A DNA stretch of 14,454 nucleotides from a virus (Duplodnaviria > Heunggongvirae > Uroviricota > Caudoviricetes): positions 1-14,454 of IMG/VR virus record IMGVR_UViG_2778261009_000003. One strand, 5' to 3'. The position numbers and the translations under genes were made by a program. The notes beneath the pieces are model-generated. The model was given only the letters and a program-made list of their open reading frames with translations, was not told the DNA's origin and made no database searches. This document shows, in pieces, positions 1 through 14,454 of the stretch (its first letter is position 1; every line of letters begins with the position of its first letter).

Positions 1-128
1 GCTGGAAAGGCTGGGCCATACTCCTCCGGCAGAAGCAGAAAAAGCTTATTATGCTTCCATCGGAAACGATGATCTGGCAGCCTGAGTTCACAGATAAAAC
101 ACTCTCCAGGAAACCCGGGGCGGTTCAG
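1..128. repeat. Left copy of a perfect 128-bp inverted repeat (partner 14327..14454)
   Basis: Checked base by base: the reverse complement of 1..128 equals 14327..14454. The match stops at position 129 (g, where the partner strand would give t). This copy lies inside the HAD reading frame. Confidence 0.95.
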
Positions 129-548
129 GTGAAGTCGCTACGTGAAGCGGTTCATGAAGTGAATGGAATATGGAAATTTGCCCTTACAGATACTGATACA
201 GCTAAATTACAAAATTTCAATCAAACCGTTGAAGAAGAGCTTGGGCTTACATGCGAATGGTCGTGGCATGACCAAGTAGATATAGCACAAACCGGAAACA
301 GCAAAGGTAAACGATTGGCACAATGGGTTGAGTCTCAGGGTTTATCAATGAACCAAGTTATTGCTTTTGGGGATAACCATAACGATCTTAGTATGCTAAA
401 AAATGCTGGTCTTGGCGTGGCTATGGGTAATGCCGTAGATGAAGTGAAAGAATGTGCTGATTTAGTGATAGGAACTAACATGGAATCAGGAATTGCTGAG
501 ATAGTTAACAGATATTTTGATCATGTACCTGCACAAAATGTTTTATGA
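3..548 (+). CDS. Cof-type HAD-IIB family hydrolase (sugar-phosphatase-like), 5'-partial, runs off the window start
   Basis: Frame 3 is open from position 3 with no stop; stop codon at 546-548. The C-terminal motif VIAFGDNHNDLSMLKNAGLGVAMGNA matches the HAD motif III/IV region of Cof/YbiV-like phosphatases as I remember them. About 41% GC in a hand-counted 100-nt sample. Confidence 0.75.
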   Translation, partial: WKGWAILLRQKQKKLIMLPSETMIWQPEFTDKTLSRKPGAVQVKSLREAVHEVNGIWKFALTDTDTAKLQNFNQTVEEELGLTCEWSWHDQVDIAQTGNSKGKRLAQWVESQGLSMNQVIAFGDNHNDLSMLKNAGLGVAMGNAVDEVKECADLVIGTNMESGIAEIVNRYFDHVPAQNVL

Positions 549-575
549 TTTTGAAACTACTAGGAGAGTTGACCA

Positions 576-785
576 ATGACAGATGAACAATTTGAAAATA
601 ACTATCCAAGAGATCAATATAGCTACGTACGTAAGAGCTTTAGAACCAAAGGGACAATGGGACAAACAGAAATTGAAGTCTTTGATATTGTCACAAAAGG
701 TACTGGTGAAGTTGTGCTCACAGCGACACGAACAGAACATACTAATCTGCGTGGTTTAAACACTACAGTTAACTGGGATTGGTAA
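576..785 (+). CDS. Small hypothetical protein (69 aa), probably host-encoded
   Basis: ATG at 576 preceded by AGGAG (562-566) with 9-nt spacing; followed by a hairpin at 800-827. No family recognised. Confidence 0.55.
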   Translation: MTDEQFENNYPRDQYSYVRKSFRTKGTMGQTEIEVFDIVTKGTGEVVLTATRTEHTNLRGLNTTVNWDW

Positions 786-793
786 TGATTAGC

Positions 794-830
794 AAAAATA
801 AAGCCCGCTCAATTTACTGCGGGCTTTGTA
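794..830. terminator. Rho-independent terminator-like hairpin, probably bidirectional
   Basis: Stem aaagcccgc (800-808) pairs with gcgggcttt (819-827) around a 10-nt loop; A-run upstream on plus gives a U-tract on the minus strand. Sits where composition shifts from host-like to AT-rich. Confidence 0.5.
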
Positions 831-859
831 GATCATAAGATTATCTGAGAACTCTTGAA

Positions 860-889
860 TTCGACAATCTATTCATCGGTGATTAAAAT
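860..889 (+). promoter_or_regulatory. Candidate sigma70-like promoter (TTCGAC, 18-nt spacer, TAAAAT) that would give a near-leaderless transcript for the 897 ORF
   Basis: Hexamers read by eye at 860-865 and 884-889. No Shine-Dalgarno precedes ATG 897. Weak evidence. Confidence 0.2.
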
Positions 890-896
890 CTCTTAT

Positions 897-1601
897 ATGA
901 AAAAACATCATTTTAAAAAATTAGTTAAACAAATTAAATTTTCTCATATAGCTTGTTTAGCAGTCGGAATACTGATCCCGATATATATAGATGTCTTAGG
1001 TTTTCATGAATTTAATAGTTCTACTGTATCTGCCATTATGGATACAGTATTGGCAAGCATTGCTACTTATACACTATATAAAGTCAAAAATTGGTACAAT
1101 GAAAAGACACATACGAAAGGATTCGAACAAGCAAATAATTTTATTGTTCATTTATCCGATGCTAAATTAAAGTCAGAAAAAGTATTTGAGCACATAATGA
1201 ATATGTATTGCTATTTAGGCACCAAAAATTTGGGAAAAACAGACCCACATTATGAAAAACTCAATAATGAAATTGAGACATTATGGTTAGATTTTAAAAC
1301 TCATTTATCTGTGCTTTCTTCACAAAAAGACATATTAAAAGTTTGGGAAATCGAAATAAGACCAGATCAACGAGATGGCATAACCCAGTACATTAGTACT
1401 TTATATAAATTTTCAGAGCTTAGCCAAATGATGATCTTTTCATATAAAGATGTTAATGGCATGGCTCGTAAAAAATCATATGAGTTCAATCAAATTAGCT
1501 TCAATCAATGCTATGCCTTAACACAGATTCTATCTACATCTTGGATGAACACCTGGAGGTCATTATTTGTAATTACTAAGTCAACCACCCACCATGATTA
1601 A
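897..1601 (+). CDS. Hypothetical membrane protein with two predicted N-terminal TM helices and a roughly 170-aa soluble domain
   Basis: Long open frame in very AT-rich DNA (about 26% GC in sample 901-1000), where chance ORFs of this length are unlikely. The ORF track starts at TTG 855; ATG 897 (MKKHHFKKL) is preferred. Hydrophobic segments IACLAVGILIPIYIDVLGF and VSAIMDTVLASIATYTLY. Start uncertain. Confidence 0.5.
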   Translation: MKKHHFKKLVKQIKFSHIACLAVGILIPIYIDVLGFHEFNSSTVSAIMDTVLASIATYTLYKVKNWYNEKTHTKGFEQANNFIVHLSDAKLKSEKVFEHIMNMYCYLGTKNLGKTDPHYEKLNNEIETLWLDFKTHLSVLSSQKDILKVWEIEIRPDQRDGITQYISTLYKFSELSQMMIFSYKDVNGMARKKSYEFNQISFNQCYALTQILSTSWMNTWRSLFVITKSTTHHD

Positions 1602-1871
1602 AAGTATCTGTAGTAGCTCACCTAGTGGAATTTGTATTAATACAATACCAAACGCATCAAGAACAGGAACAATTATCCAATTATATAAAATGATTAGGGA
1701 AAGTACAAAACCAAGGAAGTTTCTCCAGTGAAAGGTGTTTTGCTCAATTTCAATTTTATTTGTCTCAATCTGTCCATCAGTGTTAGTTTTATGTTCCTCT
1801 TTTTCAATTATTTTTGTCTTTGTAAAAAGACTCATTATCGTACTAATTAATACGGAGATTGCATTTATCAT
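1581..1871 (-). CDS. Small membrane protein (96 aa) with a hydrophilic middle and two C-terminal TM helices
   Basis: ATG at 1871 with AAGGA 8 nt upstream; begins 12 nt after the stop of the upstream minus-strand ORF. Its 3' end overlaps the 3' end of the convergent 897..1601 ORF by 21 nt. Confidence 0.5.
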   Translation of the reverse strand: MINAISVLISTIMSLFTKTKIIEKEEHKTNTDGQIETNKIEIEQNTFHWRNFLGFVLSLIILYNWIIVPVLDAFGIVLIQIPLGELLQILLIMVGG

Positions 1872-1882
1872 ATTTCATTTCC

Positions 1883-2203
1883 TTATTGTAACTGGCATAC
1901 GACTGACCAAACGCGATGACCTTTGTAGACTTGATTAAAACATGACAGTACTGCTACTGTCTTATTATCACCAAGACATACGGTATCGAGTACATCACCA
2001 TCATTAACATTCGGAATATTGTTTAGATTGAAACTGAATACAATCAAATTCCCTTTACTCTTATCTACCTTCTTTTTAATTAACTTGCTACCCGAAAACA
2101 CTTTGTCATATGGCAAAGTAACACTTACAGGTTTGACGTTTTGAAATAGGAATTCATCCAGTACGGTATGGTCATAACAGGGATATTGATCAAGTATATT
2201 CAT
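1883..2203 (-). CDS. Hypothetical protein (106 aa if started at the internal Met; track ORF starts at 2215)
   Basis: Internal ATG at 2201-2203 is preceded by GGAG at about 6-nt spacing and overlaps the stop of the upstream ORF (TAATG). No family recognised. Confidence 0.45.
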   Translation of the reverse strand: MNILDQYPCYDHTVLDEFLFQNVKPVSVTLPYDKVFSGSKLIKKKVDKSKGNLIVFSFNLNNIPNVNDGDVLDTVCLGDNKTVAVLSCFNQVYKGHRVWSVVCQLQ

Positions 2204-2796
2204 TATTTTCTCCATTTATATTCGAATGTACCACTCATAGTTTGAAGTTGTCGTAATACCATTTTTTCGGTTGTGTCATAAAAATCAAATATTGGTTTTC
2301 TTCCAACACTTCCATAATAACCAATAACACGTTCCTTACTCGTTTTCGTCTTCTTGGTAGTGTCGATTAGATATGTCTTTCCAGACGTCTTACTCTTCAC
2401 TTTTTTATATTTATCGTTCTTACGCTTTGATTTAAGTTGACTTATATTACCCTGTTTTGTCTTCTTGGCGTTTTGGTATGGGATCGCTTTATATTCCTTA
2501 TTCCCTACATAATCAGGGTCAATAATATGCTTTAAGTATCTCGCCTGATTTCCCAGTACTATAATCTGGTTTACACTCTCAAATTCATTAAGCCGTTTAA
2601 AATTAAAGTACATCGCTCTACCCGTATATGGAATTACACCACCATCTACTTCCTGGTTAATTTTATGCTGTATCTGTTGGGTAACATTACGCATACGATT
2701 ACTTAGTTCTTTTTTGAAGTGTTTACCGATCTTTGGGGAATTTTTATTAACAAATTTTTTCATATCATCTGGTGAATGACCATTCTTCCATTTCAT
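2203..2796 (-). CDS. Lysine-rich basic protein (197 aa), putative DNA-binding partner with a NUMOD3-like N-terminal motif
   Basis: ATG overlaps the upstream stop as ATGA; GAGAGG RBS 6 nt upstream. N-terminus KNGHSPDDMKKF resembles the NUMOD3 motif of GIY-YIG homing endonucleases (from memory). Lys-rich tract KSKRKNDKYKKVKSKTSGK. Confidence 0.5.
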   Translation of the reverse strand: MKWKNGHSPDDMKKFVNKNSPKIGKHFKKELSNRMRNVTQQIQHKINQEVDGGVIPYTGRAMYFNFKRLNEFESVNQIIVLGNQARYLKHIIDPDYVGNKEYKAIPYQNAKKTKQGNISQLKSKRKNDKYKKVKSKTSGKTYLIDTTKKTKTSKERVIGYYGSVGRKPIFDFYDTTEKMVLRQLQTMSGTFEYKWRK

Positions 2797-3221
2797 GATA
2801 ACCTCTCTAATAATTGTTGCAGTACTTTGAATGTTTCAGAACGATTTTTACCAAGCCGTACTTTACACATCACGGCAAGATTCAAATTATTTGATTGCTG
2901 TCCTAAGAATAGAATCAACGCCGCTTCTACCTGCTCGGCTTCATTCGTCGTACTGAAACACCATAGTATTTGTTTTTCATAGTTCAGACCTGAATCGACC
3001 ATTGCCTGCACTTTCTTTGAGGAAGAATAATAATTCTCCCAGTTGGATTCCTTTGTAGTTGGCTTCAGCTTCTTTACATCCCGAATACCTTTGAAGATTG
3101 ACTTTACACCAAAATAATATGAACCATCGTCAAAAGTGATCATATATACAAAAGCTGCATACCTCCCGTCATTTATATCTTCATAATCCCATGTCTCAGG
3201 ATCATGCATTGTCCATTTCAT
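2793..3221 (-). CDS. GIY-YIG-like nuclease domain protein (about 142 aa from ATG 3221; track ORF starts at TTG 3236)
   Basis: Motif FVYMITFDDGSYYFG fits the GIY-(10 aa)-YIG spacing; Arg 8 residues after, then NEAEQVEAAL and SNNLNLA resemble the I-TevI Glu and Asn regions (from memory, not aligned). About 31% GC. Confidence 0.5.
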   Translation of the reverse strand: MKWTMHDPETWDYEDINDGRYAAFVYMITFDDGSYYFGVKSIFKGIRDVKKLKPTTKESNWENYYSSSKKVQAMVDSGLNYEKQILWCFSTTNEAEQVEAALILFLGQQSNNLNLAVMCKVRLGKNRSETFKVLQQLLERLS

Positions 3222-3257
3222 ATAAATACCCCACAAACAATAATTTATGAGGTATTT

Positions 3258-3704
3258 ATGTGTTTAAGAGAAAAATTAAAAGTATATGAAGGTACGAAAG
3301 AATACCAAGCCCATATGGGTTATTATCGCAATGGTAAATTCTGGGTGTATAAATGTAGTGAGAACAAAGATACGATTGGATATGGACATCTACTAAAAGC
3401 CTCTGAATCGTTCTCTAACGGCATTAACGAGGATGAAGCAGATAAACTACTGGATAAAGATATTGGCATTGCCAAACGTGATTTATCTACCTTAAATTTG
3501 AAATTACCACAGGACTGGGAAGACTTCATGGTTATTATGATTTTTCAGTTAGGCTTAGGTGGTACTAAGAAGTTTAAAAAGATGATCATTGCATTACAAA
3601 ACAATAATTATACAGAAGCAATTAAACAGGCAAAGGATAGTTTATGGTATCGTCAGACACCGAATAGACTTGACAAAATGATTAAAGATTTAATTAACAA
3701 ATAA
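3258..3704 (+). CDS. Phage lysozyme / endolysin, GH24 T4-lysozyme-like
   Basis: TIGYGHLL and SLWYRQTPNR closely parallel T4 lysozyme TIGIGHLL and SRWYNQTPNR. GAGG RBS 6 nt before ATG 3258 (track ORF starts at 3204, rejected). No signal peptide or SAR-like N-terminus. Confidence 0.8.
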   Translation: MCLREKLKVYEGTKEYQAHMGYYRNGKFWVYKCSENKDTIGYGHLLKASESFSNGINEDEADKLLDKDIGIAKRDLSTLNLKLPQDWEDFMVIMIFQLGLGGTKKFKKMIIALQNNNYTEAIKQAKDSLWYRQTPNRLDKMIKDLINK

Positions 3705-3735
3705 AAAAGGGGCATTAAGCCCCTTTTTATTTTTC
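3703..3735. terminator. Bidirectional rho-independent terminator between convergent genes
   Basis: A-run, GGGGC stem, ATTAA loop, GCCCC stem, T-run; lies between the lysozyme stop (3702-3704) and the 88-aa gene stop (3727-3729). Confidence 0.65.
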
Positions 3736-3993
3736 AAGTATCACAAGAATACGTGCAATATCTACTTCAAGTCGTCTGATTGATTCATCAACTGACTTAA
3801 GAGTAATCTTCATAGCTTCATGCTCACTTCGTAATGTAGTAACAGATTGTTCTACAAGTGCAAGTCGTGTTTCTACTGAGGCAAGACGTGCTTCTATTTC
3901 TGCATCATCAGTCTTATTATCACGAATGATAGTCCAGATTAATGCTACAAAAGTTAGAAAAACTGCAATCCCTGCAATTACCAATTCTACCAT
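3727..3993 (-). CDS. Small membrane-anchored coiled-coil protein (88 aa), possible lysis-associated (holin- or spanin-like) protein
   Basis: One N-terminal TM segment (LVIAGIAVFLTFVALIWTII) then a heptad-like charged helix. AAGGGA RBS upstream. No embedded lipoprotein ORF found in other frames, so not a classic Rz/Rz1 pair. Function is a guess. Confidence 0.45.
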   Translation of the reverse strand: MVELVIAGIAVFLTFVALIWTIIRDNKTDDAEIEARLASVETRLALVEQSVTTLRSEHEAMKITLKSVDESIRRLEVDIARILVILEK

Positions 3994-4055
3994 TCCCTTT
4001 AGTTCCCTTTTTAATTATTATAGGTAGTTTTTAGGCTACCCATATTTATTTAGTT

Positions 4056-7000
4056 TTAGTTACTAACGGGGTTCTCACCACTACGGAATAAGAAGAGATC
4101 AAGTCTGTCACCTGGTAGATTATTGTTTCCCTGATGTTCGCCTATATCCAGTCCACATGAACCACTACGGCCATCTGAAGCCATTACATATAGATAATTC
4201 ATCTTACCCCTACCTACAGCAGGAATTTGAATATTATCAATTTTATATGAAACTGGCGTATCTTCACCACCGGAACCTGCATCATAACCCCATAATAGAC
4301 GGTTTGCTATTCCATCCCCACCAACAAACACTTGAAAATAGTTCCACTTCCAGCATGTAAAATAAAAACTCATATTACTATTCAGAGTCCTTGCAAAGTC
4401 CTCCCCTTTAATACGCAATCCTACATATAGTCGACCTGGTTCTGGTCTATAGTTTTCTGGGAATTCTACCCCAGGAGGTGCCCATACGTTCCCCTGTCGA
4501 TTAACTCCAGTACTTTGAGGTCTGCACTGATCACCAACAATACGTGATGCATTAAGAGTACCAAGAATTGTACAGTCCTGGTTAATAGTAACATTATTCA
4601 TGGTTCCACTGGTTGCCTGAATATTACCCCGTACTGATACGTCCTGGAAGCTTGCCTTACCATTCTTATTGATCATCCAGCCTGTACTACCATTCCAGTT
4701 TGTAGATTGAATTTGCTGGGATATTTTTGCTGAGTCGATAACCCCGTTAACTATGTGTCCATTAAGGATTGAAGCATTGGCTATGCGAGCTGAGTCGATT
4801 GCTGCTATCTGAATTTTCGCACGCGAAACGGCAAGGTCATTTATCTGCCCTGTGTTTATACTCGCGTCTCCAATGACCGCACTATTGATATAAGTCTTAC
4901 CATTCTGAACTACAAACGGATATACCTTATCAGTCTGTTTAGCACTGTCAGTAGAAATAATACTGAAACGATCTGCCATTACCGTAAATGCTGAGTTTTT
5001 CCCGTCATTAGCAAGTGATACACCTGACACGTTGCCGTTATTCGTCACCTGAACCTGCCAGCGTGAACCAAGGTCATCAACAATATGTTTCTCAATAATG
5101 CCTGTGGCAACATCTGAATTCAGTAATTCATCTACAACATCATCATTTAGCTTTGAGTACGGAACTTTAGTATTCTGGTTAAAACCAATAGTTGGCGACC
5201 ATACTAATTCATCCTGTCCCATTACATCATATGCTGCAAGACGTCCGAACCACGATCCATCCTCTATCCCAAATGAAGCTGAGAAGCGGTTAGAAGAACT
5301 GAAATAGTGAACATCCGAACTAAAACCCTCATCCTTAGCACACTGGAACACTACACCAGAATAGTCTGGTACGTTTGATTCATCCCATTCTAAGAACACA
5401 TTATCATAGCCATTACGCAAACGTACACCAAGTAATTGGGGGTGCTGTGGGTTACTTACTTCAATCTGTACTTCTTCTGAATAAATTCCAGTACCGTGAC
5501 CGTGGGCAATAATACCAATTACACGATATCTGTTAAGTCCATCAGATTGATTCATTGCAAAGGTATATATCCAGTTAAAGTCCGTTGTAAAGTACGACTT
5601 AATATATGTACGATAACGGTCATACACACGAATTTCATAATATTTGAAAAAATCAGAGAATCGTTTTCCATTTACTGGCAAAGTACTTTGTTCATCCCAT
5701 CTGAATATAAAATCTTGTGAATAAGTCTGGTTCAATCCCATATTATCGTTAGTCATATCAAGATTAGTAATCTTTGGTAGGGCAAAAATCACCTGTGGAG
5801 TTTGATTATAAATTGCAACTAACTCAGATGAATAACCGAGAGTGTTATACGCCTCAATACCAAAATCATATTTAACACCGTGGATTAGATTCAGTATCTG
5901 AAACTCTGTGGTGTACTGTCCTACGTTACCAATCGAGATCCATGTATTCGAATCACTGCGTTTATATCTAATCTTATAACCCCGTACGCTTGAATCCTGG
6001 CTTAAATCCCATGTCATAAGCACGGCATTACCGTTAACGGTTGCACCAAGTTTCTGCACCTGCAAGTTTGATGGAGGTTCTACGTATGTCGCGTTTGGTA
6101 GATTTGTGATCCCGTCCTGTGGGAATCGTCCATGGTCTTTCCCCTGATATATGCCGTCCGCATAGGCTATAGCGGTAATCTGTACGACACCAGTCTTATC
6201 TACGGTCATCGGTACAGTACGTTGTATTACACGGAACTTATTATTAACAAATCCGGCTTCTTTGAAACTGAGTGTAAAAACATCGTAGACTGTGAGATCG
6301 GTAACGTATGTGTTAAAAGTTATACTATTAAGAACATACTTAGATTTTAATAGTTCGGTATTAGCCATTTTAGCAAGTTGTTTTTTGTCCTGAATCCATT
6401 TTAGATTAAGGTCTTTTTTAATGATTAAACCATCCCGTACCACTGTTTCATTTGTAAGCGTATCACTTGGATAACGAATAATATCTTCTGAGTAATCACC
6501 GCCTGGGTTTGTATAGGTCACATCGAATACGTTCGCATAATCCGTATTAGAACCAGTTGTGATATTCACAGTACCGAGAATGTTTTTTTCATCAAAATGA
6601 TATAGTGGGACATCGGCAGTATCTACGGTGAGATACATAATACCATTCGATTCATATATTACACCACCGAATGTAGACAAGATGCTTTCAAGGTTTTCTT
6701 TATATGACTTATCATAGGCAATAGCACCATTTGAATATAGTTCATTATTCTTACAGTACATTGCACAATTACGAAATGATGCAATATCAATATCATTAGG
6801 ATCAGTGTTGAAACCAAATTCATTATTTGTGATAAAGTCATATAACTGACTCGGTGGATTACTGGAGGGTTTACGAATGTTATCAGTAAGGTCATAAATT
6901 AGACGTCCTTTCATCTCCAATGAAAGTGCATAGTTTTGATTCACTAAAATACCATCAGTCAGACTACCATTAGTCTTACGGATAACCGAACAAACCTGTA

Positions 7001-7613
7001 CTAATCCATCACCACGCATTTCATCAGTCCAGCGAGATCCGCCATATTGCCGGGCAAGTGTCATAGAACCACCATAAGACGGCTTTCCAAAACGAATTTC
7101 GAGCTGGAGGAAGTTACGATACTTCTCACGCATAAGGGATGTAGAAACAATACCCTCACTGGTTATTTCGGCATCATCTAGTAAGATTGGACTGTTATCA
7201 AAGTATACCTGTTTAATTACGGCACCAGATTGTGCACCTGGAGCACGTCCGATCTCCCCGATACTAATAGCATGCACTGTGCATAGTTGGTTACTTTGTC
7301 CCTTATAGACGTTCTGCCATACGACAATGGAACCTACCTTAACAAATGATTCTTCGGTCAGGCTTCTATTAGTACCGCCATATACAATCGGTATCCCAGT
7401 ACTGGGTGAAGTACTTCGAGAGTTAACCGTTCCAGTACTGGGATAGTTTACCCCCTGATCTCCAACACGCATCATCTGGGAGGATGCAACATAGGATAAT
7501 GCTGCTACACCAACACCAATAGCGATAGATGCTGCAAGACCCACTGCTGCGTAAGCTGCGGCGGCGGCTGATGCACCTGCTATTACTGCTGTTAATACGG
7601 CTGCTACTGCCAT
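4056..7613 (-). CDS. Host specificity protein J-like central tail fibre / tail tip protein (1185 aa) with an N-terminal gpI-like hydrophobic extension
   Basis: C-terminal SGTMNNVTINQDCTILGTLNASRIVGD parallels lambda J SGTLSNVTIAENCTINGTLRAEKIVGD (from memory). FN3-like segment around KIRYKRSDSNTWISIG. GGAGGG RBS 7 nt upstream. About 46% GC. Confidence 0.85.
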   Translation of the reverse strand: MAVAAVLTAVIAGASAAAAAYAAVGLAASIAIGVGVAALSYVASSQMMRVGDQGVNYPSTGTVNSRSTSPSTGIPIVYGGTNRSLTEESFVKVGSIVVWQNVYKGQSNQLCTVHAISIGEIGRAPGAQSGAVIKQVYFDNSPILLDDAEITSEGIVSTSLMREKYRNFLQLEIRFGKPSYGGSMTLARQYGGSRWTDEMRGDGLVQVCSVIRKTNGSLTDGILVNQNYALSLEMKGRLIYDLTDNIRKPSSNPPSQLYDFITNNEFGFNTDPNDIDIASFRNCAMYCKNNELYSNGAIAYDKSYKENLESILSTFGGVIYESNGIMYLTVDTADVPLYHFDEKNILGTVNITTGSNTDYANVFDVTYTNPGGDYSEDIIRYPSDTLTNETVVRDGLIIKKDLNLKWIQDKKQLAKMANTELLKSKYVLNSITFNTYVTDLTVYDVFTLSFKEAGFVNNKFRVIQRTVPMTVDKTGVVQITAIAYADGIYQGKDHGRFPQDGITNLPNATYVEPPSNLQVQKLGATVNGNAVLMTWDLSQDSSVRGYKIRYKRSDSNTWISIGNVGQYTTEFQILNLIHGVKYDFGIEAYNTLGYSSELVAIYNQTPQVIFALPKITNLDMTNDNMGLNQTYSQDFIFRWDEQSTLPVNGKRFSDFFKYYEIRVYDRYRTYIKSYFTTDFNWIYTFAMNQSDGLNRYRVIGIIAHGHGTGIYSEEVQIEVSNPQHPQLLGVRLRNGYDNVFLEWDESNVPDYSGVVFQCAKDEGFSSDVHYFSSSNRFSASFGIEDGSWFGRLAAYDVMGQDELVWSPTIGFNQNTKVPYSKLNDDVVDELLNSDVATGIIEKHIVDDLGSRWQVQVTNNGNVSGVSLANDGKNSAFTVMADRFSIISTDSAKQTDKVYPFVVQNGKTYINSAVIGDASINTGQINDLAVSRAKIQIAAIDSARIANASILNGHIVNGVIDSAKISQQIQSTNWNGSTGWMINKNGKASFQDVSVRGNIQATSGTMNNVTINQDCTILGTLNASRIVGDQCRPQSTGVNRQGNVWAPPGVEFPENYRPEPGRLYVGLRIKGEDFARTLNSNMSFYFTCWKWNYFQVFVGGDGIANRLLWGYDAGSGGEDTPVSYKIDNIQIPAVGRGKMNYLYVMASDGRSGSCGLDIGEHQGNNNLPGDRLDLFLFRSGENPVSN

Positions 7614-7614
7614 G

Positions 7615-8004
7615 TTATTTCCCTCCGAATCTATAAATTTTATAATTGTTTTCTATTGGTTCATATTTCATTACTGTATAGACACCATCGATTAAAATGA
7701 TTACTTTACCTCTCCAGTACACAGTAGATTGGGAGCCAGTAATTAGGATATCCCCATCAAATGGTTCTACTTGTTTTATACCCAGATCATTACATAGGGC
7801 ATTTAGTGATTTATATGAACAATGTTCTTTTGCGTACTTTCGACCGCCAGTAGGTGACGTATATTTCTGATAGATTTCGTCCCTGTAATTTGTACCAAGA
7901 TGCATATCAATAACAGTCAGAGACATGATATGACAATCATTTTCACCGTATACAATTGGCTGACCGATTAGAGTACTAAGATATTCTGTAATAAATCCAT
8001 TCAT
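7615..8004 (-). CDS. Minor tail protein (129 aa), K-like position, partial NlpC/P60-like signature
   Basis: GQPIVYGENDC and GDILI resemble the NlpC/P60 G-x-P-Y-x-W-G-x-x-D-C-S-G and GDLVFF motifs, but no His follows. Start overlaps the upstream stop (TAATG). Confidence 0.45.
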   Translation of the reverse strand: MNGFITEYLSTLIGQPIVYGENDCHIMSLTVIDMHLGTNYRDEIYQKYTSPTGGRKYAKEHCSYKSLNALCNDLGIKQVEPFDGDILITGSQSTVYWRGKVIILIDGVYTVMKYEPIENNYKIYRFGGK

Positions 8005-8648
8005 TATTTTTTACTCGCTTGCCAAAACTGCTCTGAACTATTTAGTATTCCGATTAGATCAAAGAACTTATCACCCTTATGGGTTGATTGGTGAATTGAT
8101 GTACTTGATAGTAGACGTTGTGTCTGGTCTAATTTCTTCCATATGGAATTGAGATTAACAGTGGTTTCATTCTGTGTGTTAGTTCCATCTACAGAAAAAT
8201 CACTGCTAAAATAATCTATATATCCACTAAAAATACGATAACGGTAAAGAAGTGCACCTGTTGCAGGGTTAACGATCCCCATCCAGATATTAACTTTGGC
8301 ATCTTTCCACAATCCTCTTAAAGCAAGGGAAAGATAATCCTGGCTTACGTTACTAATCTTAAACGTAGTACCGGTATTATTGATCTGATTCTTTTCTACA
8401 TAGTTCGCAAAGGATGAATCAATTAGATCTGGAATTGGTTTATATACAATGCCATTGATATTCTGTTCTACTACTGCATCAGTAAGGTATAGATTACTTC
8501 CTGTAGGAGGTAATAGATCAATCAGTTTTACCATGATTCCACACTGGTATAATTCCCTTTCTGTAAGAACTGACTTATTATCACCCCGCATTAGATTCCA
8601 GTACTTTACTAATTCTGGGTTACTTAGTACATTGTTTGGAATTGCCAT
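8004..8648 (-). CDS. Minor tail protein (214 aa), L-like position
   Basis: Translationally coupled within the tail operon; AAGGGG RBS upstream. Assigned by position only; lacks the Cys cluster of lambda L. Confidence 0.45.
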   Translation of the reverse strand: MAIPNNVLSNPELVKYWNLMRGDNKSVLTERELYQCGIMVKLIDLLPPTGSNLYLTDAVVEQNINGIVYKPIPDLIDSSFANYVEKNQINNTGTTFKISNVSQDYLSLALRGLWKDAKVNIWMGIVNPATGALLYRYRIFSGYIDYFSSDFSVDGTNTQNETTVNLNSIWKKLDQTQRLLSSTSIHQSTHKGDKFFDLIGILNSSEQFWQASKK

Positions 8649-8649
8649 A

Positions 8650-9204
8650 TTATCCCCTTATATTCTCTGTTGCCGTAATTGTCATTTCAATAATATTCGT
8701 ACTTGGTAAGTCATATGTAGAGTTAGCAGGTGTAAGAATAAAAGAACCCATTAGATTATCGTATTTTACTGTTTCCCCTATCTGGATATTTCGGATCAGT
8801 CCTGGGTAGATATTCAGAGTCGTTCCACTACGGGCAATAACACGATAGAGTTTTTTGTGTCCTGAGAATTGAATTAAATCACCTGGGGAAAGGTTATTAG
8901 TATTGGTCTGAATAGATGTAGCCCCGGCTGTACGGGCTGCTGTTACCTGTACACCTGTCGCCTGATTACCTGAATAATCACCCCACCAACCAAGAGACAT
9001 ATCAAAAGGTCTGCCATTGGAATAGAGTGCAAGAAAGTTTGTTAAATCGGTTCTGTATTTTTTACTTGTTGTAACCTTAAAACTTATGCTGAAGTACTGT
9101 GTTCCGACAATACGGGTAATTACCTCACCAGACCATGTTTTGTTTTGGTATTGGGGGATATTATCAGAAAGTACAAAATCACTTATTAGAGAGTTATTAA
9201 ACAT
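8650..9204 (-). CDS. Minor tail protein (184 aa), M-like / distal tail position directly after the tape measure
   Basis: Position and AAGGA RBS. No diagnostic motif. Confidence 0.45.
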   Translation of the reverse strand: MFNNSLISDFVLSDNIPQYQNKTWSGEVITRIVGTQYFSISFKVTTSKKYRTDLTNFLALYSNGRPFDMSLGWWGDYSGNQATGVQVTAARTAGATSIQTNTNNLSPGDLIQFSGHKKLYRVIARSGTTLNIYPGLIRNIQIGETVKYDNLMGSFILTPANSTYDLPSTNIIEMTITATENIRG

Positions 9205-9219
9205 ATATTTTCCTTATAA

Positions 9220-9237
9220 AGCCCACATGAATGTGGG
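9220..9237 (-). other. Intergenic hairpin between tape-measure stop and next gene start
   Basis: gcccaca / tgaa / tgtgggc, 7-bp perfect stem; followed on the minus strand by a short U-run and then the RBS. Confidence 0.3.
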
Positions 9238-9251
9238 CATACTGTATTTAC

Positions 9252-11513
9252 TTAGACGTTCCTCTGTTGGCTTTTACGTACTGCCTGGGTGATAGTATCG
9301 GCGTGTTTATCACACATACTCTGGAATTTTGAATCTGTGAGTTCTCCGGCACCCTGAATAATTAAAGGGGCATCAATTTTAATATCACCACCTTTATCAC
9401 TCCCCTTATTATTCAAGTACTGTGTTAAGTCCTGGTTCAGAGATTTACCTACAACACGTTCACCTTTTTCAAGATTATATGTACCAGTCTTCGGTAGTGA
9501 GTCCCAACCATCATGTGCCTGACCTTCAATCTTTGTACCCTTAATCGTACTGACAATATTGGCACCTTCGGCTGCAACCTTAATACCCGCAGCGATGCCT
9601 GTAGGCCAGCCAAGCTTCATAGCCTCAGAAATACCCTGCTGAATATTGATAATAGACTGGGCAACTGCGATCCCTTTGCTCATTGCAAATGCAGCTTTTG
9701 CCATAGCATTACTTTCACCAAATACACCTGCAAGAGTAGTACCGAGATCCTGAGCACCCGTTGCATACATAGAAAGTGTCTTTTGCTGGGCATCAATATT
9801 AGCCTGACTCATTTTGTCTGTAGTAGATTGTTGAATTGCTACCATGCGATCTTGGTAATCCTGATAACTTAATAACTTCTGTTCATACAGACTTTGATTC
9901 AGTGCTAATTCGGCCTGTCCTTCTGTTGCTAATGTATCGAGCGTGTTCTGATCGGCACTCATATTTAATGGATCTTGATTAAGTCCCATACGTTCGTTTT
10001 GACCTGCCAGTACTGAATTAAGGTCTTTTCCTGACATAGAACCACCAATTGCCGAAATATTCTGGGCAAGTTTAAGTGGATCACTTTCAGTGAGCATTGA
10101 ATTAACCATTTCTTTATACAGGCGTTTACGTGAATCAGTCTGCTTTCTTAATAGTTCAGTCTTTTCAGCTTCAGTTTTACCAAGAGTATCTGCACTTATT
10201 TTAATGCGTTGTTCTATTTCATCCTGGGTCTTATTAAATTGTTGTAGCTGTAGGGCAGCACCATTACCTGCAATACCATTCATAGTCTGTTCCAGTACTT
10301 TGGCAGCCTGGATACGATCCTTTGCGGCCTTATCACTGGCTTTTTTCGCTTCTTCCCCTGCTTTACCATCATCGAAGTTAGAACGCTCTTTTGTCGTTCC
10401 TGTATATGCCTTTGTAGTTGGTTTATAGTCTTCCTGTGAATATTCACGGGCAAAGGCAGCAAGACCACCAATACCTGGTCCAAGTGGTGAAAAAACTGCA
10501 TCGGCTGCTGTCTGTACGTGTTTACGTCCTTTTGCTATTTGCTCGGGTGTAAACTCGGGTAATTCAAGGCCAATCTTTGATCCTAAATTACGGATCATGT
10601 CATAGAATTTAACGACCTGATCGTATAACGACTGTATGATCGTGTTTTTTGAATCCCAGTTAAAGAATGAATTAATAAACTCAACTGCTTTTGTTTTGAG
10701 GTTGTCAAACCATTGATATATTTCCTTACAGGCTTTTACGAGTCCATTAAAAATATCAATGAGGGGTGTAACAATTTCAAATGCAAGAGTTTTCAGTCCG
10801 TTACCAAGACCTGAAGTATTCTGACTTAACAGATCAAATGTTTTTGCCTGTTCATTAGTCATTGCTACGTTCTGGGCTGCAAGAGAGTTATTAAATTCAA
10901 TCTCACTATTAAAAGAGTTGAATGTAGGTATTAGTTTTGCAGCATCACCACCGAGAGCATTAATCATGTTTGTAATTTCGGCAAGATTTGCACCATTCTT
11001 TTTCATCTCAAAAAAGACTTTTGACAATGCCTGTAAACCACCATCAGCCTGTTTTAATGTTGGTATTAGGCTCTTTACATCTACGCCGAATGTTTTCAAG
11101 TCACCGCCAACGCCAGAACCGTCCGCAGACGCAATACCAAGTTGATCCATCACTGCTTCGTTAATCGAACCAACTTCTTCCATAGATAATCCTATGGTTT
11201 TGAATGCCCCTGACCACTGCTGGAGTTGCTCGGCACTTAGTCCGGTTGTGCGTGTCAATGCGTTGATGTCGTTTGCAAGTCCAATTGTATATGTGGTCAG
11301 TGCTGTAATAGCTGTAATTGCCATTGTTGCCGCATTACCAACACCACCAAGACCAGTTGCCATTGAACTTAGGCCACCACTAATACCACCAAATACACTA
11401 CCAGCACGATCACCAAAGTCGGCAAGTCCATTGCCAGCACTTTTTAAAGATTTTTGTAACCCAGATTCATCACCTGTGATTTCAAAAATCATCTGTTGTT
11501 TATTCCCTGCCAT
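9252..11513 (-). CDS. Tail tape measure protein (753 aa)
   Basis: Large Ala/Gly/Gln-rich ORF with low-complexity helical stretches, immediately downstream of the G/GT chaperone pair; its ATG lies 1 nt after the T-frame stop. Confidence 0.85.
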   Translation of the reverse strand: MAGNKQQMIFEITGDESGLQKSLKSAGNGLADFGDRAGSVFGGISGGLSSMATGLGGVGNAATMAITAITALTTYTIGLANDINALTRTTGLSAEQLQQWSGAFKTIGLSMEEVGSINEAVMDQLGIASADGSGVGGDLKTFGVDVKSLIPTLKQADGGLQALSKVFFEMKKNGANLAEITNMINALGGDAAKLIPTFNSFNSEIEFNNSLAAQNVAMTNEQAKTFDLLSQNTSGLGNGLKTLAFEIVTPLIDIFNGLVKACKEIYQWFDNLKTKAVEFINSFFNWDSKNTIIQSLYDQVVKFYDMIRNLGSKIGLELPEFTPEQIAKGRKHVQTAADAVFSPLGPGIGGLAAFAREYSQEDYKPTTKAYTGTTKERSNFDDGKAGEEAKKASDKAAKDRIQAAKVLEQTMNGIAGNGAALQLQQFNKTQDEIEQRIKISADTLGKTEAEKTELLRKQTDSRKRLYKEMVNSMLTESDPLKLAQNISAIGGSMSGKDLNSVLAGQNERMGLNQDPLNMSADQNTLDTLATEGQAELALNQSLYEQKLLSYQDYQDRMVAIQQSTTDKMSQANIDAQQKTLSMYATGAQDLGTTLAGVFGESNAMAKAAFAMSKGIAVAQSIINIQQGISEAMKLGWPTGIAAGIKVAAEGANIVSTIKGTKIEGQAHDGWDSLPKTGTYNLEKGERVVGKSLNQDLTQYLNNKGSDKGGDIKIDAPLIIQGAGELTDSKFQSMCDKHADTITQAVRKSQQRNV

Positions 11514-11514
11514 A

Positions 11515-11835
11515 TTATTTTCTTCCCATCCAGTTTAACATGTTTGCTCTCTGTTCTTCGGCGATCCGTTTCTCTCTCTCTTCGGCTTGTTCTTTAATGG
11601 TCTTATTGTTGATGATATTAAGAGAGTCCAATTCTGTGATACTGAATTTCTTTAAGTCTTCCTTCTTAATATTCCCAGTACTGAGCCATATAGCCTGGAG
11701 TATTTCGGTATGTCTTACCTGTTCAATTCGGGAAGAATTTGGTTCTACAAAAGTGTCATATACAAATAGATAGATAAAAAGCGAAAAGGGCATGGTGCAG
11801 AGATCTTCCACACCACACCCTTTTGTCATCAGCAT
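11515..11835 (-). CDS. Tail assembly chaperone T segment, probably expressed as a G-T fusion via -1 frameshift
   Basis: This ORF is in the -1 frame relative to G. Its frame is open upstream to a TGA three codons before the G stop, so it overlaps the slippery site. Confidence 0.6.
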   Translation of the reverse strand: MLMTKGCGVEDLCTMPFSLFIYLFVYDTFVEPNSSRIEQVRHTEILQAIWLSTGNIKKEDLKKFSITELDSLNIINNKTIKEQAEEREKRIAEEQRANMLNWMGRK

Positions 11836-11867
11836 TTTTAGAGAAAGTTTAAGAAACGGATCGCCTC

Positions 11868-12158
11868 TTACTTTTTTTCAATTTCTTCAATATTCATAGC
11901 TTCGGTAAAAATACGCGTGATTTCGGTATTAAGTTTGATTTGATAAACCATGTCAATTTCGCTTTCTACCTGTTCTGGTGATTTAAAAAGTTGTTTGCCA
12001 TCGACATCAACTACACAGTAATGAATTGTAGTGTACGGGTCACTACATTCACTATACTTAGAAATAGCTGGAAGACGAATATAAACAGTAAACCCCGGAG
12101 CAAGTTCAAAGGCATGTTTTTTGACACCAATTGCTGTCATTAGATTAGATAGATCCAT
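11868..12158 (-). CDS. Tail assembly chaperone G-like (96 aa)
   Basis: Small acidic protein between tube and tape measure; ends ...EIEKK* with slippery heptamer A-AAA-AAG directly before the stop. Confidence 0.65.
   Translation of the reverse strand: MDLSNLMTAIGVKKHAFELAPGFTVYIRLPAISKYSECSDPYTTIHYCVVDVDGKQLFKSPEQVESEIDMVYQIKLNTEITRIFTEAMNIEEIEKK
11871..11877 (-). other. Programmed -1 ribosomal frameshift slippery heptamer A_AAA_AAG (G/GT)
   Basis: Minus-strand aaaaaag (plus-strand ctttttt at 11871-11877) in the zero-frame register gaA AAA AAG TAA. Same heptamer as the E. coli dnaX shift site. Confidence 0.6.
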
Positions 12159-12190
12159 GTGTATTTTTTCCTTATTATGATTATTTTATA

Positions 12191-12667
12191 TTATGGTTTT
12201 GCTGCGATTTCACCAACTGCTACAGGTTGTCCCGTAATTGTCATGACGAATTCACGTGTCGCGACAGAATCAAAATCCCCACCGACAACATCAGAACTGA
12301 TATAGCCATTAACTACAGAGTAATAACCCGCACCATCGGTATCAGCGATGTTTTCGTAATAGGTTACTTTTACCTGCATAAGCGTCTGTTTTTGAGCTGC
12401 GGTAACTAACATCTCCTGTCCTACTGCCCCTGGTTTCCAGTTCACAGATAGGGTTAGATCGGGTACAGAACGAGAACCTAATAGCTTCTGTGCGTACTGC
12501 TTACCAAATGTATTTACTGAAATGATTGTACTCTCGGCACCTGCTGCTGATGGGAAAGCTGCAACTTCTTCAATTACTGTATAAGTGGTTGCCTGACCAC
12601 CACCTGCTGGTGCTTCTGCAATTTCTACTACAACGTTATTCGCTGCGAAAATTCGATTAAAAGCCAT
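12191..12667 (-). CDS. Major tail (tube) protein (158 aa)
   Basis: Size and position directly upstream of G/GT and tape measure; AAGGA RBS 8 nt upstream. No motif-level confirmation. Confidence 0.65.
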   Translation of the reverse strand: MAFNRIFAANNVVVEIAEAPAGGGQATTYTVIEEVAAFPSAAGAESTIISVNTFGKQYAQKLLGSRSVPDLTLSVNWKPGAVGQEMLVTAAQKQTLMQVKVTYYENIADTDGAGYYSVVNGYISSDVVGGDFDSVATREFVMTITGQPVAVGEIAAKP

Positions 12668-12688
12668 TTTAATTTCCTTATTTAATTA

Positions 12689-12707
12689 GGGTAACGTCCT
12701 GTTACCC
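12689..12707 (-). other. Intergenic hairpin upstream of the tube gene
   Basis: gggtaac / gtcct / gttaccc, 7-bp perfect stem, between the 533-aa ORF stop (12718-12720) and tube start (12667). Confidence 0.3.
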
Positions 12708-12717
12708 GTTTCCTTTT

Positions 12718-14319
12718 TTATTTATGAAGATTGTAGTACTGCACATATAGCCCCAATCCGCGTAAAAGTTCACCCGAATAGAAACTAAAGAACATACTAT
12801 TGTTTTCGGCAGTTGTTTCATTACCTGTTCTGATTGACGCAGGCCATGTACCATTCATTACATGATTTGGTGAAATAACTGCATAGTTAAGTTGTATTTC
12901 ATCAAATAGTAATTGAATTAGCTCATGGTCTGGATATCCGGCGATAGCCATCATGCATGCCCCTGCTAACCATAGACCTGACATATGAGGGGTAAAGCCA
13001 TCATATTCTACAGAACCATTATCCCTAAAATAGGTAGGAGCTTTACCGACATTATTTTTCATGAACCATTTTAGATAGTTCATCCAGTTCTGACAGAAAG
13101 ATATTAGTTTAGGAGGTATTACAGTACTGTCTTGTCGTGACCATAATTCATGTACTGCATCACACCCACCAAAGAAAGCCCTTGGTTCGTATCCACTCCA
13201 TGCTTCGGCGTACCAGTGCTGCATTATGAATTGATCTGGTTTACCATCAGGAGCATATGCTAAAGCGTCCTGTCTGTTCCATACGAAAGCCTGTGCACAT
13301 GGTCCTGGTAAAGATGGTTTAAATTTATTTTTAAACCATGCCTGAGAATCATATAGAAAATTGATACTGTTATTTAAGCGAGTATGATCTATTTCTGTTC
13401 CTTTAAAGCACCAGATCGCCGGTAGTTGATAACCAGGATACGGTAGACCACGCCAGCCAGAATATAACTGGGCATAGGGATCGGTAATGTTAGAGAACGG
13501 AATTAAACCGGGAGTATACGCAAGACTATCTAACATATAATCTTTAATAGTACAGTCACCTAATCGTGCTGTGTATCCATTACCAGTTGTGTCGTTAAAC
13601 GTAAGCAGTACTGTGACCGAATAATCACCTGTCCCAGCATCTGTATACATCGCAGGCAAATCATTAATACAATACCAGTCAATCTTTCCATTCACACCAT
13701 TTACTGGATCTGTATCAAGTAGCAGTGTGAAAGATTCACGGTTCGTTAGTACTGGGCTTGCTGGAATTGGATCTGGTTGAATCCATTCTCCTGGGTTATC
13801 TGGATCTTCAATTTCGGGGTGATCTGGTTGATAACCGTTTAGTTTGAAGTCAGCAATAGTAAAAGTCTTTGTAACCCATTCACCATTTGTTGCAGGGAGC
13901 ATAGCCCACCAACGCCATTTATTATCATCACTTATACGAAAGTTAAAATCATCATCATATGAACGATAGGTAAAAGACTGAATATTGGCAGTCTCTGGTG
14001 TGAATATCCAAAACCCCACCACCTGTCCCCCGTCACCATCCATTGTTGTAGACACGACGTTATCGTAATACTTCCCAAGTACTCCACTCTGATATTCAAA
14101 GTTTGTTACCGTGTTATCTCCATAATCGGCAATCATACGTAGATCGGCAGTCATATAATTAGAGCCATCTGGTTTCATCACACGTGTGAAACGATTCATA
14201 GGAATGTCCATTGTAGTAATAGATCCATCTGGATTAGTCATTGGTAAGCCACACCGATAATCAATTGCACCCTCTTCTGTCTTTGTTTTATTCACTGTGA
14301 CTTCAGCAGATACTGACAT
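12718..14319 (-). CDS. Large hypothetical protein (533 aa), Trp/Tyr/Asn/Asp-rich, enzyme-like; possibly 5'-truncated at the inverted-repeat junction
   Basis: 1.6-kb open frame. The only start is ATG 14319, 7 nt inside the junction, with no Shine-Dalgarno; the frame is open upstream into the repeat until a stop. Not recognisable as capsid, portal, terminase or sheath. Confidence 0.55.
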   Translation of the reverse strand: MSVSAEVTVNKTKTEEGAIDYRCGLPMTNPDGSITTMDIPMNRFTRVMKPDGSNYMTADLRMIADYGDNTVTNFEYQSGVLGKYYDNVVSTTMDGDGGQVVGFWIFTPETANIQSFTYRSYDDDFNFRISDDNKWRWWAMLPATNGEWVTKTFTIADFKLNGYQPDHPEIEDPDNPGEWIQPDPIPASPVLTNRESFTLLLDTDPVNGVNGKIDWYCINDLPAMYTDAGTGDYSVTVLLTFNDTTGNGYTARLGDCTIKDYMLDSLAYTPGLIPFSNITDPYAQLYSGWRGLPYPGYQLPAIWCFKGTEIDHTRLNNSINFLYDSQAWFKNKFKPSLPGPCAQAFVWNRQDALAYAPDGKPDQFIMQHWYAEAWSGYEPRAFFGGCDAVHELWSRQDSTVIPPKLISFCQNWMNYLKWFMKNNVGKAPTYFRDNGSVEYDGFTPHMSGLWLAGACMMAIAGYPDHELIQLLFDEIQLNYAVISPNHVMNGTWPASIRTGNETTAENNSMFFSFYSGELLRGLGLYVQYYNLHK

Positions 14320-14326
14320 TGCAGTA

Positions 14327-14454
14327 CTGAACCGCCCCGGGTTTCCTGGAGAGTGTTTTATCTGTGAACTCAGGCTGCCAGATCATCGTTTCCGATGGAA
14401 GCATAATAAGCTTTTTCTGCTTCTGCCGGAGGAGTATGGCCCAGCCTTTCCAGC
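14327..14454. repeat. Right copy of the perfect 128-bp inverted repeat (partner 1..128)
   Basis: Exact reverse complement of 1..128; an inverted duplicate of HAD-gene coding sequence fused to the 5' side of the 533-aa ORF. Confidence 0.95.

Follow-up and report, generated by a model that had tools for sequence, protein, structure and literature searches.

The right end of an Escherichia coli prophage, analysed here as a window of 14,454 nucleotides (the whole stretch, positions 1 to 14,454 of the tailed-phage record IMGVR_UViG_2778261009_000003), carries on its minus strand two overlapping open reading frames (ORFs), termed ORF1 and ORF2, whose functional relationship is considered in the following. 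In our assessment they are probably separate genes, independent but coupled in translation, that lie at the distal end of a temperate E. coli siphovirus prophage, the first encoding a minimal GIY-YIG nuclease and the second a protein of the tail-completion class. A first-pass annotation of this DNA had read the pair as a split homing endonuclease, with the catalytic domain in ORF1 and the detached linker and DNA-binding half in ORF2. The layout that it had taken from the sequence, two overlapping frames with a ribosome-binding site (RBS) of its own for ORF2, is as follows; both frames lie on the minus strand and share an ATGA stop/start overlap, and the GAGAGG of the RBS lies 5 nt upstream of the ORF2 ATG.

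ORF1: 2793..3221 (read 3221→2793), minus strand; 142 amino acids (aa) from the ATG; predicted GIY-YIG nuclease of the SegE type, consisting of a single domain and lacking a linker and a DNA-binding domain.
ORF2: 2203..2796 (read 2796→2203), minus strand; 197 aa, basic; predicted HK97-gp10/λ gpZ-type tail-completion-protein fold with an inserted β-domain that has Lys-rich loops.
ORF1/ORF2 junction: 2793..2807, minus strand; ATGA stop/start overlap at 2796-2793; RBS GAGAGG at 2807-2802, inside the 3' end of ORF1.

The GIY-YIG motif noticed in ORF1 is real. The protein matches the Pfam family PF19835, SegE_GIY-YIG, over residues 9-104 with 61.6 bits (cutoff 25) and E = 1.1e-16, as well as two PHROG homing-endonuclease families, and tblastn retrieved the Seg-like "homing endonuclease" genes of T4-like phages with 31-42% identity over the N-terminal half. 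The AlphaFold model, calculated with 31 homologues, was confident and reached a predicted local distance difference test score (pLDDT) of 91.6 and a predicted template modelling score (pTM) of 0.87, and its predicted α/β GIY-YIG fold is closest to the catalytic domain of I-TevI. The GIY...YIG motif is represented by F24-V25-Y26 ... Y36-x-G38, and in 61 distinct sequences with pairwise identities down to 33% the residues Y26, Y36, G38, K40, E99 and N114 are invariant, including the catalytic Glu and Asn that had been proposed from the sequence. Note that E99 and N114 are equated with E75 and N90 of I-TevI by motif order and spacing, not by residue-level superposition. R46, ten residues past the YIG tyrosine and a candidate counterpart of I-TevI R27, is an arginine or a lysine in the relatives; the invariant basic residue is another one, K40, and either of the two may act in catalysis. 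With a median ratio of nonsynonymous to synonymous substitution rates (dN/dS) of 0.093, ORF1 is, as judged from sequence conservation and the predicted structure, a genuine GIY-YIG nuclease under selective constraint.

Outside the catalytic domain ORF1 comprises no more than 22 additional residues at the N-terminus and a single helix at the C-terminus, residues 127-141. No linker, zinc finger, NUMOD or helix-turn-helix element was found in the protein, and no Pfam domain other than PF19835 was matched. A search of PDB chain sequences with its profile gave nothing meaningful, and the PADLOC defence models returned only a generic 'HEase' match (3e-06), with the PD-T4-3 family not matched. The searches found 168 relatives of ORF1, and the following covers the 120 that are listed. 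All of these contain PF19835 and originate from Enterobacterales, and they measure about 132-157 aa, nearly all of them 137-157 aa, with a single exception of 230 aa. This sole extended relative, P0236, is located on a 2.7 kb contig; its addition is an unrelated, Cys-rich N-terminal extension of ~90 residues (KANKVHNYQYDYSDSTYVN...C..C...), not ORF2, and is similar to the Cys-containing modules with which other phage endonucleases bind DNA. A profile scan of genome contigs with the ORF1 alignment returned 3 loci only.

The assignment of ORF2 as the DNA-binding half was founded on a NUMOD3-like motif, GHSPDDMKKF, and on a Lys-rich tract. The tract is real and stays basic across homologues, but the motif did not withstand closer analysis. 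ORF2 does not match the Pfam hidden Markov model (HMM) of NUMOD3 (PF07460) even at E <= 10, nor does it match anything else in Pfam at this threshold, in PHROGs or in PADLOC, the last of these giving no match for any of the proteins of ORF2 to ORF4. Of the two domains for which HMM searches had been suggested, GIY-YIG was thus matched and NUMOD was not. In a BLASTP comparison with a genuine NUMOD3 protein the motif region showed 9/33 identities, with E = 0.089 for that one comparison, and the motif varies freely once more distant ORF2 relatives are aligned. In the ORF2 model it forms the start of a long α-helix, residues 9-49. The likeness to the NUMOD3 modules of GIY-YIG and HNH homing endonucleases is confined to a short N-terminal H-x-P-[DE]-x-[MI]-x-K-F, and ORF2 differs from them by the absent HMM match, the unconserved motif and the different fold. 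The candidate NUMOD3 or DNA-binding module was rejected on these grounds, with the motif being part of a 40-residue helix of another fold.

The AlphaFold model of ORF2 is confident (pLDDT 87.5, pTM 0.74). In it, this N-terminal helix of 40 residues leads into a β-rich middle, after which the chain ends in another helix, and its fold match is the gp51 chain of phage 80α. Gp51 is a tail completion protein, equivalent to λ gpZ, HK97 gp10 and SPP1 gp16.1, that resides inside the neck and contacts the DNA end and the tape measure protein; it is built from a long bent N-terminal helix, a β-hairpin/loop and a C-terminal helix, and at its apex λ gpZ carries a further β-domain (PMC11661146). The model of ORF2 agrees with this published helix/β-hairpin/helix description, and the Lys-rich tract falls into an inserted β-region that corresponds to the extra β-domain of λ gpZ, a protein of nearly the same length (192 aa).

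At the level of sequence, the ORF2 profile retrieved 34 clusters from 1.84 billion representative proteins, all of them <=244 aa and without a GIY-YIG domain. Six distant members of this family match phrog_1924, 'minor tail protein', with a best E of 3.1e-21, and the relatives of the most distant member, P0122, include gp44 of RcCronus and its kin. RcCronus gp44, the last gene of this Rhodobacter phage (Cronusvirus) and itself annotated as 'minor tail protein', is thereby linked to the ORF2 family via intermediate sequences, and the two can be aligned co-linearly with the common motifs P-FT-R, Q-A-YL and GN. The virion gene layout of RcCronus is the same overall as the one described here; from capsid to tail tube, RcCronus has neither a tail-completion nor a terminator gene annotated, and gp44 is displaced to the end of the genome as is ORF2. 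RcCronus differs in that no GIY-YIG gene is found upstream and that the direct profile comparison is not significant; note also that 'minor tail' is a label from annotation. When 50,697 phage genomes were searched, by megablast with the region and by tblastn with ORF2, nothing was matched; the ORF2 profile found nothing meaningful among PDB chain sequences, and Foldseek against BFVD produced weak matches only. Judged mainly by its fold, ORF2 most likely serves, together with its neighbor ORF3, in tail completion or in the neck of the virion. A chimera of an ORF2-family protein was also observed: P0087 from Enterobacter roggenkampii (202 aa, present on 34 contigs) starts as a terminase small subunit, of which it has the N-terminal part, and ends with the last ~65 residues of a member of the ORF2 family. 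It is probably the trace of a prophage remnant that has lost all that lay between terS and ORF2.

In order to describe how the two genes occur together, 92 loci were collected, 89 of them with ORF2 and 86 with both ORF1 and ORF2, the other three of the 89 being the GIY-YIG-less loci L016-18. ORF1 is located directly upstream of ORF2 as a separate ORF in 86/86 enterobacterial loci that have both, the hosts being Escherichia, Enterobacter, Klebsiella, Cronobacter, Salmonella, Serratia and other genera. The junctions between the genes take the following forms in these 86 loci.

4-nt overlap: 18 loci.
1-nt overlap: 30 loci.
0-nt gap (abutting): 5 loci.
1-nt gap: 3 loci.
9-nt spacer: 29 loci, with the ORFs in frame and separated by a stop codon.
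10-nt overlap: 1 locus.

Because the relative reading frame differs between loci, a frameshifted pseudogene or a programmed fusion is excluded, and joining of ORF1 and ORF2 by programmed frameshifting or readthrough was rejected for the same reason. Both genes are under strong purifying selection, with a dN/dS of about 0.09 for each. The suggestion in the first-pass annotation that this is a natural arrangement of two ORFs is therefore upheld, although probably not as the two chains of one enzyme. No fused ORF1-ORF2 protein was found among the 34 clusters of the ORF2 family or among the listed relatives of ORF1.

The history of ORF2 appears to be tied to the tail tip and to ORF3, more than to ORF1. 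In pairwise comparisons the divergence of ORF2 correlates with that of the tail-tip gene, which is three genes away, with a Spearman ρ of 0.86 overall and of 0.83 and 0.81 within the two clades, whereas the corresponding values for the adjacent ORF1 are 0.41 overall and 0.35 and 0.38 within clades. ORF3 directly follows ORF2.

ORF3: 1883..2203, minus strand; 106 aa; start overlapping the ORF2 stop, TAATG at 2201-2205; conserved partner of ORF2.

Among more distant phages, L016-18 have homologues of ORF2 and ORF3 but no GIY-YIG gene, and the ORF2 homologue of RcCronus likewise lacks one upstream. In Escherichia phage DCP80 (L080, 5247-6745) a gene for a T4-type recombination endonuclease VII is found directly upstream of the ORF2 and ORF3 homologues instead of a GIY-YIG gene, with an endolysin gene nearby, and a different nuclease hence fills the position equivalent to that of ORF1. 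Positional homologues of ORF3, with the shared motifs K..KK and KG.R, follow the ORF2 homologues in the GIY-YIG-less L016 and in DCP80. ORF3 has no Pfam match. The ancient partner of ORF2 is ORF3, not ORF1. Note that the DCP80 record is labelled Straboviridae yet contains a relative of a lambda-J-like tail tip, and because of this clash its classification or assembly may be questionable.

Conversely, ORF1 can change while ORF2 stays nearly the same. In 27 pairs of loci ORF2 is conserved with >=90% identity yet ORF1 shows <=60%, and the clearest case is the comparison of L021 with L023. Here the homology at the DNA level breaks at the start codon of ORF1 and returns at its stop codon, with 83% DNA identity in the upstream flank and 94% in the downstream flank; the ORF1 proteins are 41% identical and the ORF2 proteins 96%. 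The difference between these loci is an exact cassette replacement of ORF1 alone. Three criteria for a homing endonuclease are a DNA-binding region joined to the catalytic domain, sporadic presence, and movement independent of the flanks. ORF1 is without such a region, and its slot is empty in 0/86 related loci, in a sample that was gathered through ORF1 or ORF2 themselves; it has moved independently of its flanks in one exact ORF-for-ORF replacement, and its divergence correlates weakly with that of neighboring genes. For comparison, locus L017 (1410-2183) contains a 257-aa NUMOD3-containing gene between two tail genes that is absent from the otherwise syntenic L016 and L018, a textbook sporadic insertion of the homing-endonuclease type that contrasts with the always-present ORF1.

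Several observations weigh against the interpretation of two independent genes, a mobile-type nuclease and a tail-completion protein. A clean cassette swap of ORF1 was seen once only, and a second candidate, L051, was dismissed upon inspection, as it showed continuous 88% homology and no sharp replacement. The adjacency of ORF1 and ORF2 in 86/86 loci without an empty slot is atypical for a selfish homing gene, so that a functional partnership would fit as well, and ORF1 is without a recognisable means of specific DNA binding. Concerning ORF2, neither the protein itself nor 32 family members match Pfam HK97-gp10_like, and hhalign comparisons of the family were not significant either with λ gpZ (probability 0.9%) or with RcCronus gp44. 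The gene is furthermore found after the tail tip and endolysin genes, not between the head-closure and tail-terminator genes. Because matches at the sequence level are absent, the tail-completion assignment rests on one fold match and on links through intermediate sequences.

The reading closest to the original proposal is a homing endonuclease of two chains, in which ORF1 supplies catalysis and ORF2 binds DNA and targets the enzyme in trans, with translational coupling keeping both in stoichiometric amounts. The genes are indeed always adjacent, close or overlapping in the 86 loci, as would be consistent with such coupling; ORF1 has no DNA-binding domain, and ORF2 is very basic and belongs to a fold class that touches DNA in virions. 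Against this stand the missing NUMOD match and the unconserved GHSPDDMKKF, the tail-completion fold of the ORF2 model and a divergence that follows the tail tip, not ORF1. ORF2 and ORF3 exist where there is no GIY-YIG gene, an ORF1 allele of 41% identity can sit beside an ORF2 of 96%, no fused homologue was found in the exhaustive ORF2 search or among the listed relatives of ORF1, and the only listed ORF1 variant with a likely DNA-binding module, P0236, has gained an N-terminal Cys-rich extension, not ORF2. We consider a two-chain enzyme quite improbable, and the proposal of a split homing endonuclease, with ORF2 as its detached half, is not supported. In a broader form of cooperation, ORF1 would work with ORF2, with or without ORF3, either as a two-chain targeting nuclease or by being recruited to the particle, at its neck or at the DNA end, with a GIY-YIG activity associated with the virion or with packaging. 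To this we give a slim chance; if true, cooperation of ORF1 with ORF2 and possibly ORF3 would account for the genes never separating in enterobacterial prophages. That ORF1 and ORF2 are the decayed, frameshifted remnant of a single-chain GIY-YIG homing endonuclease is next to inconceivable. While an ATGA overlap could in principle arise by a 1-nt frameshift, there are six different junction geometries, some of them 9-nt spacers that keep the frame and contain a stop codon, purifying selection on either ORF is strong, ORF2 has, in its model, a well-folded and unrelated domain of its own, and no protein resembling a fused ancestor was found in the 34 ORF2 clusters or among the listed relatives of ORF1.

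Of more weight, though still rather unlikely in our view, is the possibility that ORF1 is a domesticated nuclease that acts late in infection on DNA of the host or on DNA left unpackaged and degrades it, as does T4 endonuclease II (EndoII), or restricts other phages, like the GIY-YIG defence enzyme PD-T4-3, with ORF2 retaining its structural role. The slot that is never empty in 86 loci, the low dN/dS of 0.093 with invariant catalytic residues, and a single-domain size resembling that of EndoII would all be in line with domestication, as would a prophage remnant in which just a block from lysozyme through ORF1 to ORF4 has been kept. That remnant, L087 from Serratia (4545-6636), contains endolysin, ORF1, ORF2, ORF3 and ORF4 beside the transposase (rve) of an insertion sequence (IS), with no tail genes left. 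The best sequence matches of ORF1 are nevertheless Seg-type homing endonucleases of T4-like phages, the PADLOC result is a generic one with no match to the PD-T4-3 family, and exact replacement of a cassette is the behavior of mobile nuclease genes (PMC10448857, PMC2988022). EndoII (DenA), a stand-alone GIY-YIG nuclease, moreover has no detectable sequence relationship to ORF1, and its self-protection relies on the modified DNA of the phage, and such modification is not known from a temperate enterobacterial prophage.

The comparison with known systems places ORF1 near T4 SegE (PF19835) and I-TevI, with which it has the catalytic domain in common by HMM and fold. I-TevI continues after its 92-aa catalytic domain with a 75-aa linker and a DNA-binding domain, and ORF1, with 142 aa, contains neither. 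Seg proteins have roughly 200 aa or more. As ORF1, the seg genes of T4 are inserted between conserved phage genes and exchangeable as discrete cassettes, and they likewise embed the expression signals of their neighbors (PMC2988022). They differ from ORF1 in that the latter is present in every related genome sampled, not sporadic, and resides in a temperate prophage, not in a T4-like lytic phage. For ORF2 the extra β-domain and the length recall gpZ, while the lack of a sequence match to HK97-gp10_like or gpZ, the position of the gene at the far end after the endolysin, and the pairing with ORF3 set it apart from the known tail completion proteins.

Following the preferred reading of two independent genes, ORF1 would be a complete, minimal, free-standing homing-endonuclease-like gene, resident in a slot that is fixed, with the endolysin gene on one side and ORF2 on the other. 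Its product presumably cuts DNA by the usual one-metal chemistry of GIY-YIG enzymes, and the benefit could be a selfish one, through homing or through the exclusion of markers of related phages or prophages. Alternatively the gene might be domesticated, as a late nuclease in the manner of T4 EndoII (PMC1564403), or with a PD-T4-3-like function in restriction. Retention of ORF1 was probably aided by its embedding, as the RBS of ORF2 lies inside the gene and its start abuts that of the divergent endolysin, whose promoter probably also lies within ORF1; the same logic of retention, with expression signals of neighbors embedded in the nuclease gene, applies to the T4 seg genes (PMC2988022). ORF2 would be a virion neck or tail protein of the class of λ gpZ, HK97 gp10 and 80α gp51, its Lys-rich loops forming, according to the fold, an insertion that faces the DNA or the lumen, and it would work with ORF3, not with ORF1. 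On the function of ORF1, the never-empty slot and the strong constraint lead us to lean toward some benefit from the gene, and the Seg-like sequence affinity and the cassette swap toward its mobility (compare PMC10448857).

The window represents the right end of the E. coli prophage, adjoining a ybhA-like pyridoxal phosphatase gene and pgl. The chromosome of E. coli FDN-9 is 99.9% identical to it, and the RefSeq start of ORF1 in that strain is the same ATG; a sister copy of the prophage is found in another strain at a different chromosomal site. On the minus strand the order begins with the genes for the tape measure, the distal tail protein, tail proteins, the tail tip and an 88-aa protein, followed by the endolysin gene, which is read from the other strand, and then by ORF1 to ORF4, the cargo genes and the junction to the host. 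The features beyond ORF1 to ORF3 are the following.

Tail tip protein: 4056..7613, minus strand; 1185 aa; RefSeq 'phage tail tip protein', with homologues that contain Pfam Phage_Tail_Tip and fn3.
88-aa protein: 3727..3993, minus strand; N-terminal transmembrane segment and coiled coil; weak DUF2730 match; downstream of the tail-tip gene.
Intrinsic-terminator-like hairpin, bidirectional: 3704-3728; perfect 10-bp stem flanked by A-runs and T-runs, between the converging genes for the 88-aa protein and the endolysin.
Endolysin (phage lysozyme, glycoside hydrolase family GH24): 3258..3704, plus strand; divergent from ORF1; RefSeq 'glycoside hydrolase family protein'.
ORF4: 1581..1871, minus strand; 96-aa membrane protein, holin-like; closes the operon; weak match to Pfam GTA_holin_3TM.

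The match of ORF4 to GTA_holin_3TM has E = 0.0013 and stays under the family cutoff, and homologues of the endolysin match Pfam Phage_lysozyme. The start codons of ORF1 and the endolysin gene are divergent with 36 bp between them. Endolysin and ORF1 are on opposite strands in most lineages (L003, L007, L011, L014, L019 and L088) and on the same strand in L015 and L085-87, so that the orientation of the endolysin must have flipped during the history of the family. A terminator scan gave 7 terminator-like sites versus 1.1 in shuffled sequences, and the hairpin at 3704-3728 was the strongest; it would insulate the operon of ORF1 to ORF4 from that of the tail, provided that late transcription is not antiterminated. 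Promoter-like sites were fewer in the scan than in shuffled sequences, so that it provides no evidence on promoters.

The region between ORF4 and the host junction is variable between lineages and looks like a moron or defence-type variable region. In the window (576-1601) its cargo consists of an unknown 69-aa protein and a (membrane) protein of ~234 aa, and in L003 (7293-9867) of a KAP NTPase and a DUF2806 gene. The first ~140 bases of the window (1-143) match the end of an IS3-family element (IS1203-like) that is found in thousands of E. coli records, and since the otherwise identical FDN-9 sequence aligns only from base 126, the IS was apparently inserted, in the source of the window, in the ybhA-like gene beside the prophage end. 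Two further features were noted in locus L001 (35451-37133 and 37409-38637) of the same prophage. One is a 560-aa protein with an N-terminal segment resembling a major tail protein (phrog_158) and a tail-fibre-like C-terminus; the other is an IS3 element that sits among the small head-tail genes of strain FDN-9, for which reason this copy may be defective.

Taken as a whole, the locus shows the mosaicism that is ordinary for phage genomes, and two of its features are mildly unusual. One is that a Seg-like nuclease lacking a DNA-binding domain has become fixed in a whole family of prophages, the other that the tail-completion-like gene has its place at the far end of the late region, away from the usual position. 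None of these results is surprising enough to alter thinking in the field. They do correct a tempting error of annotation, in that a basic ORF behind a GIY-YIG domain need not be the half that binds DNA, and they provide a likely identity, that of a tail-completion-type virion protein, for a small unannotated family at the end of widespread prophages of the Enterobacterales. With its universal retention and strong constraint, the minimal SegE-like nuclease could be a useful case for how homing-type nucleases become fixed or domesticated.

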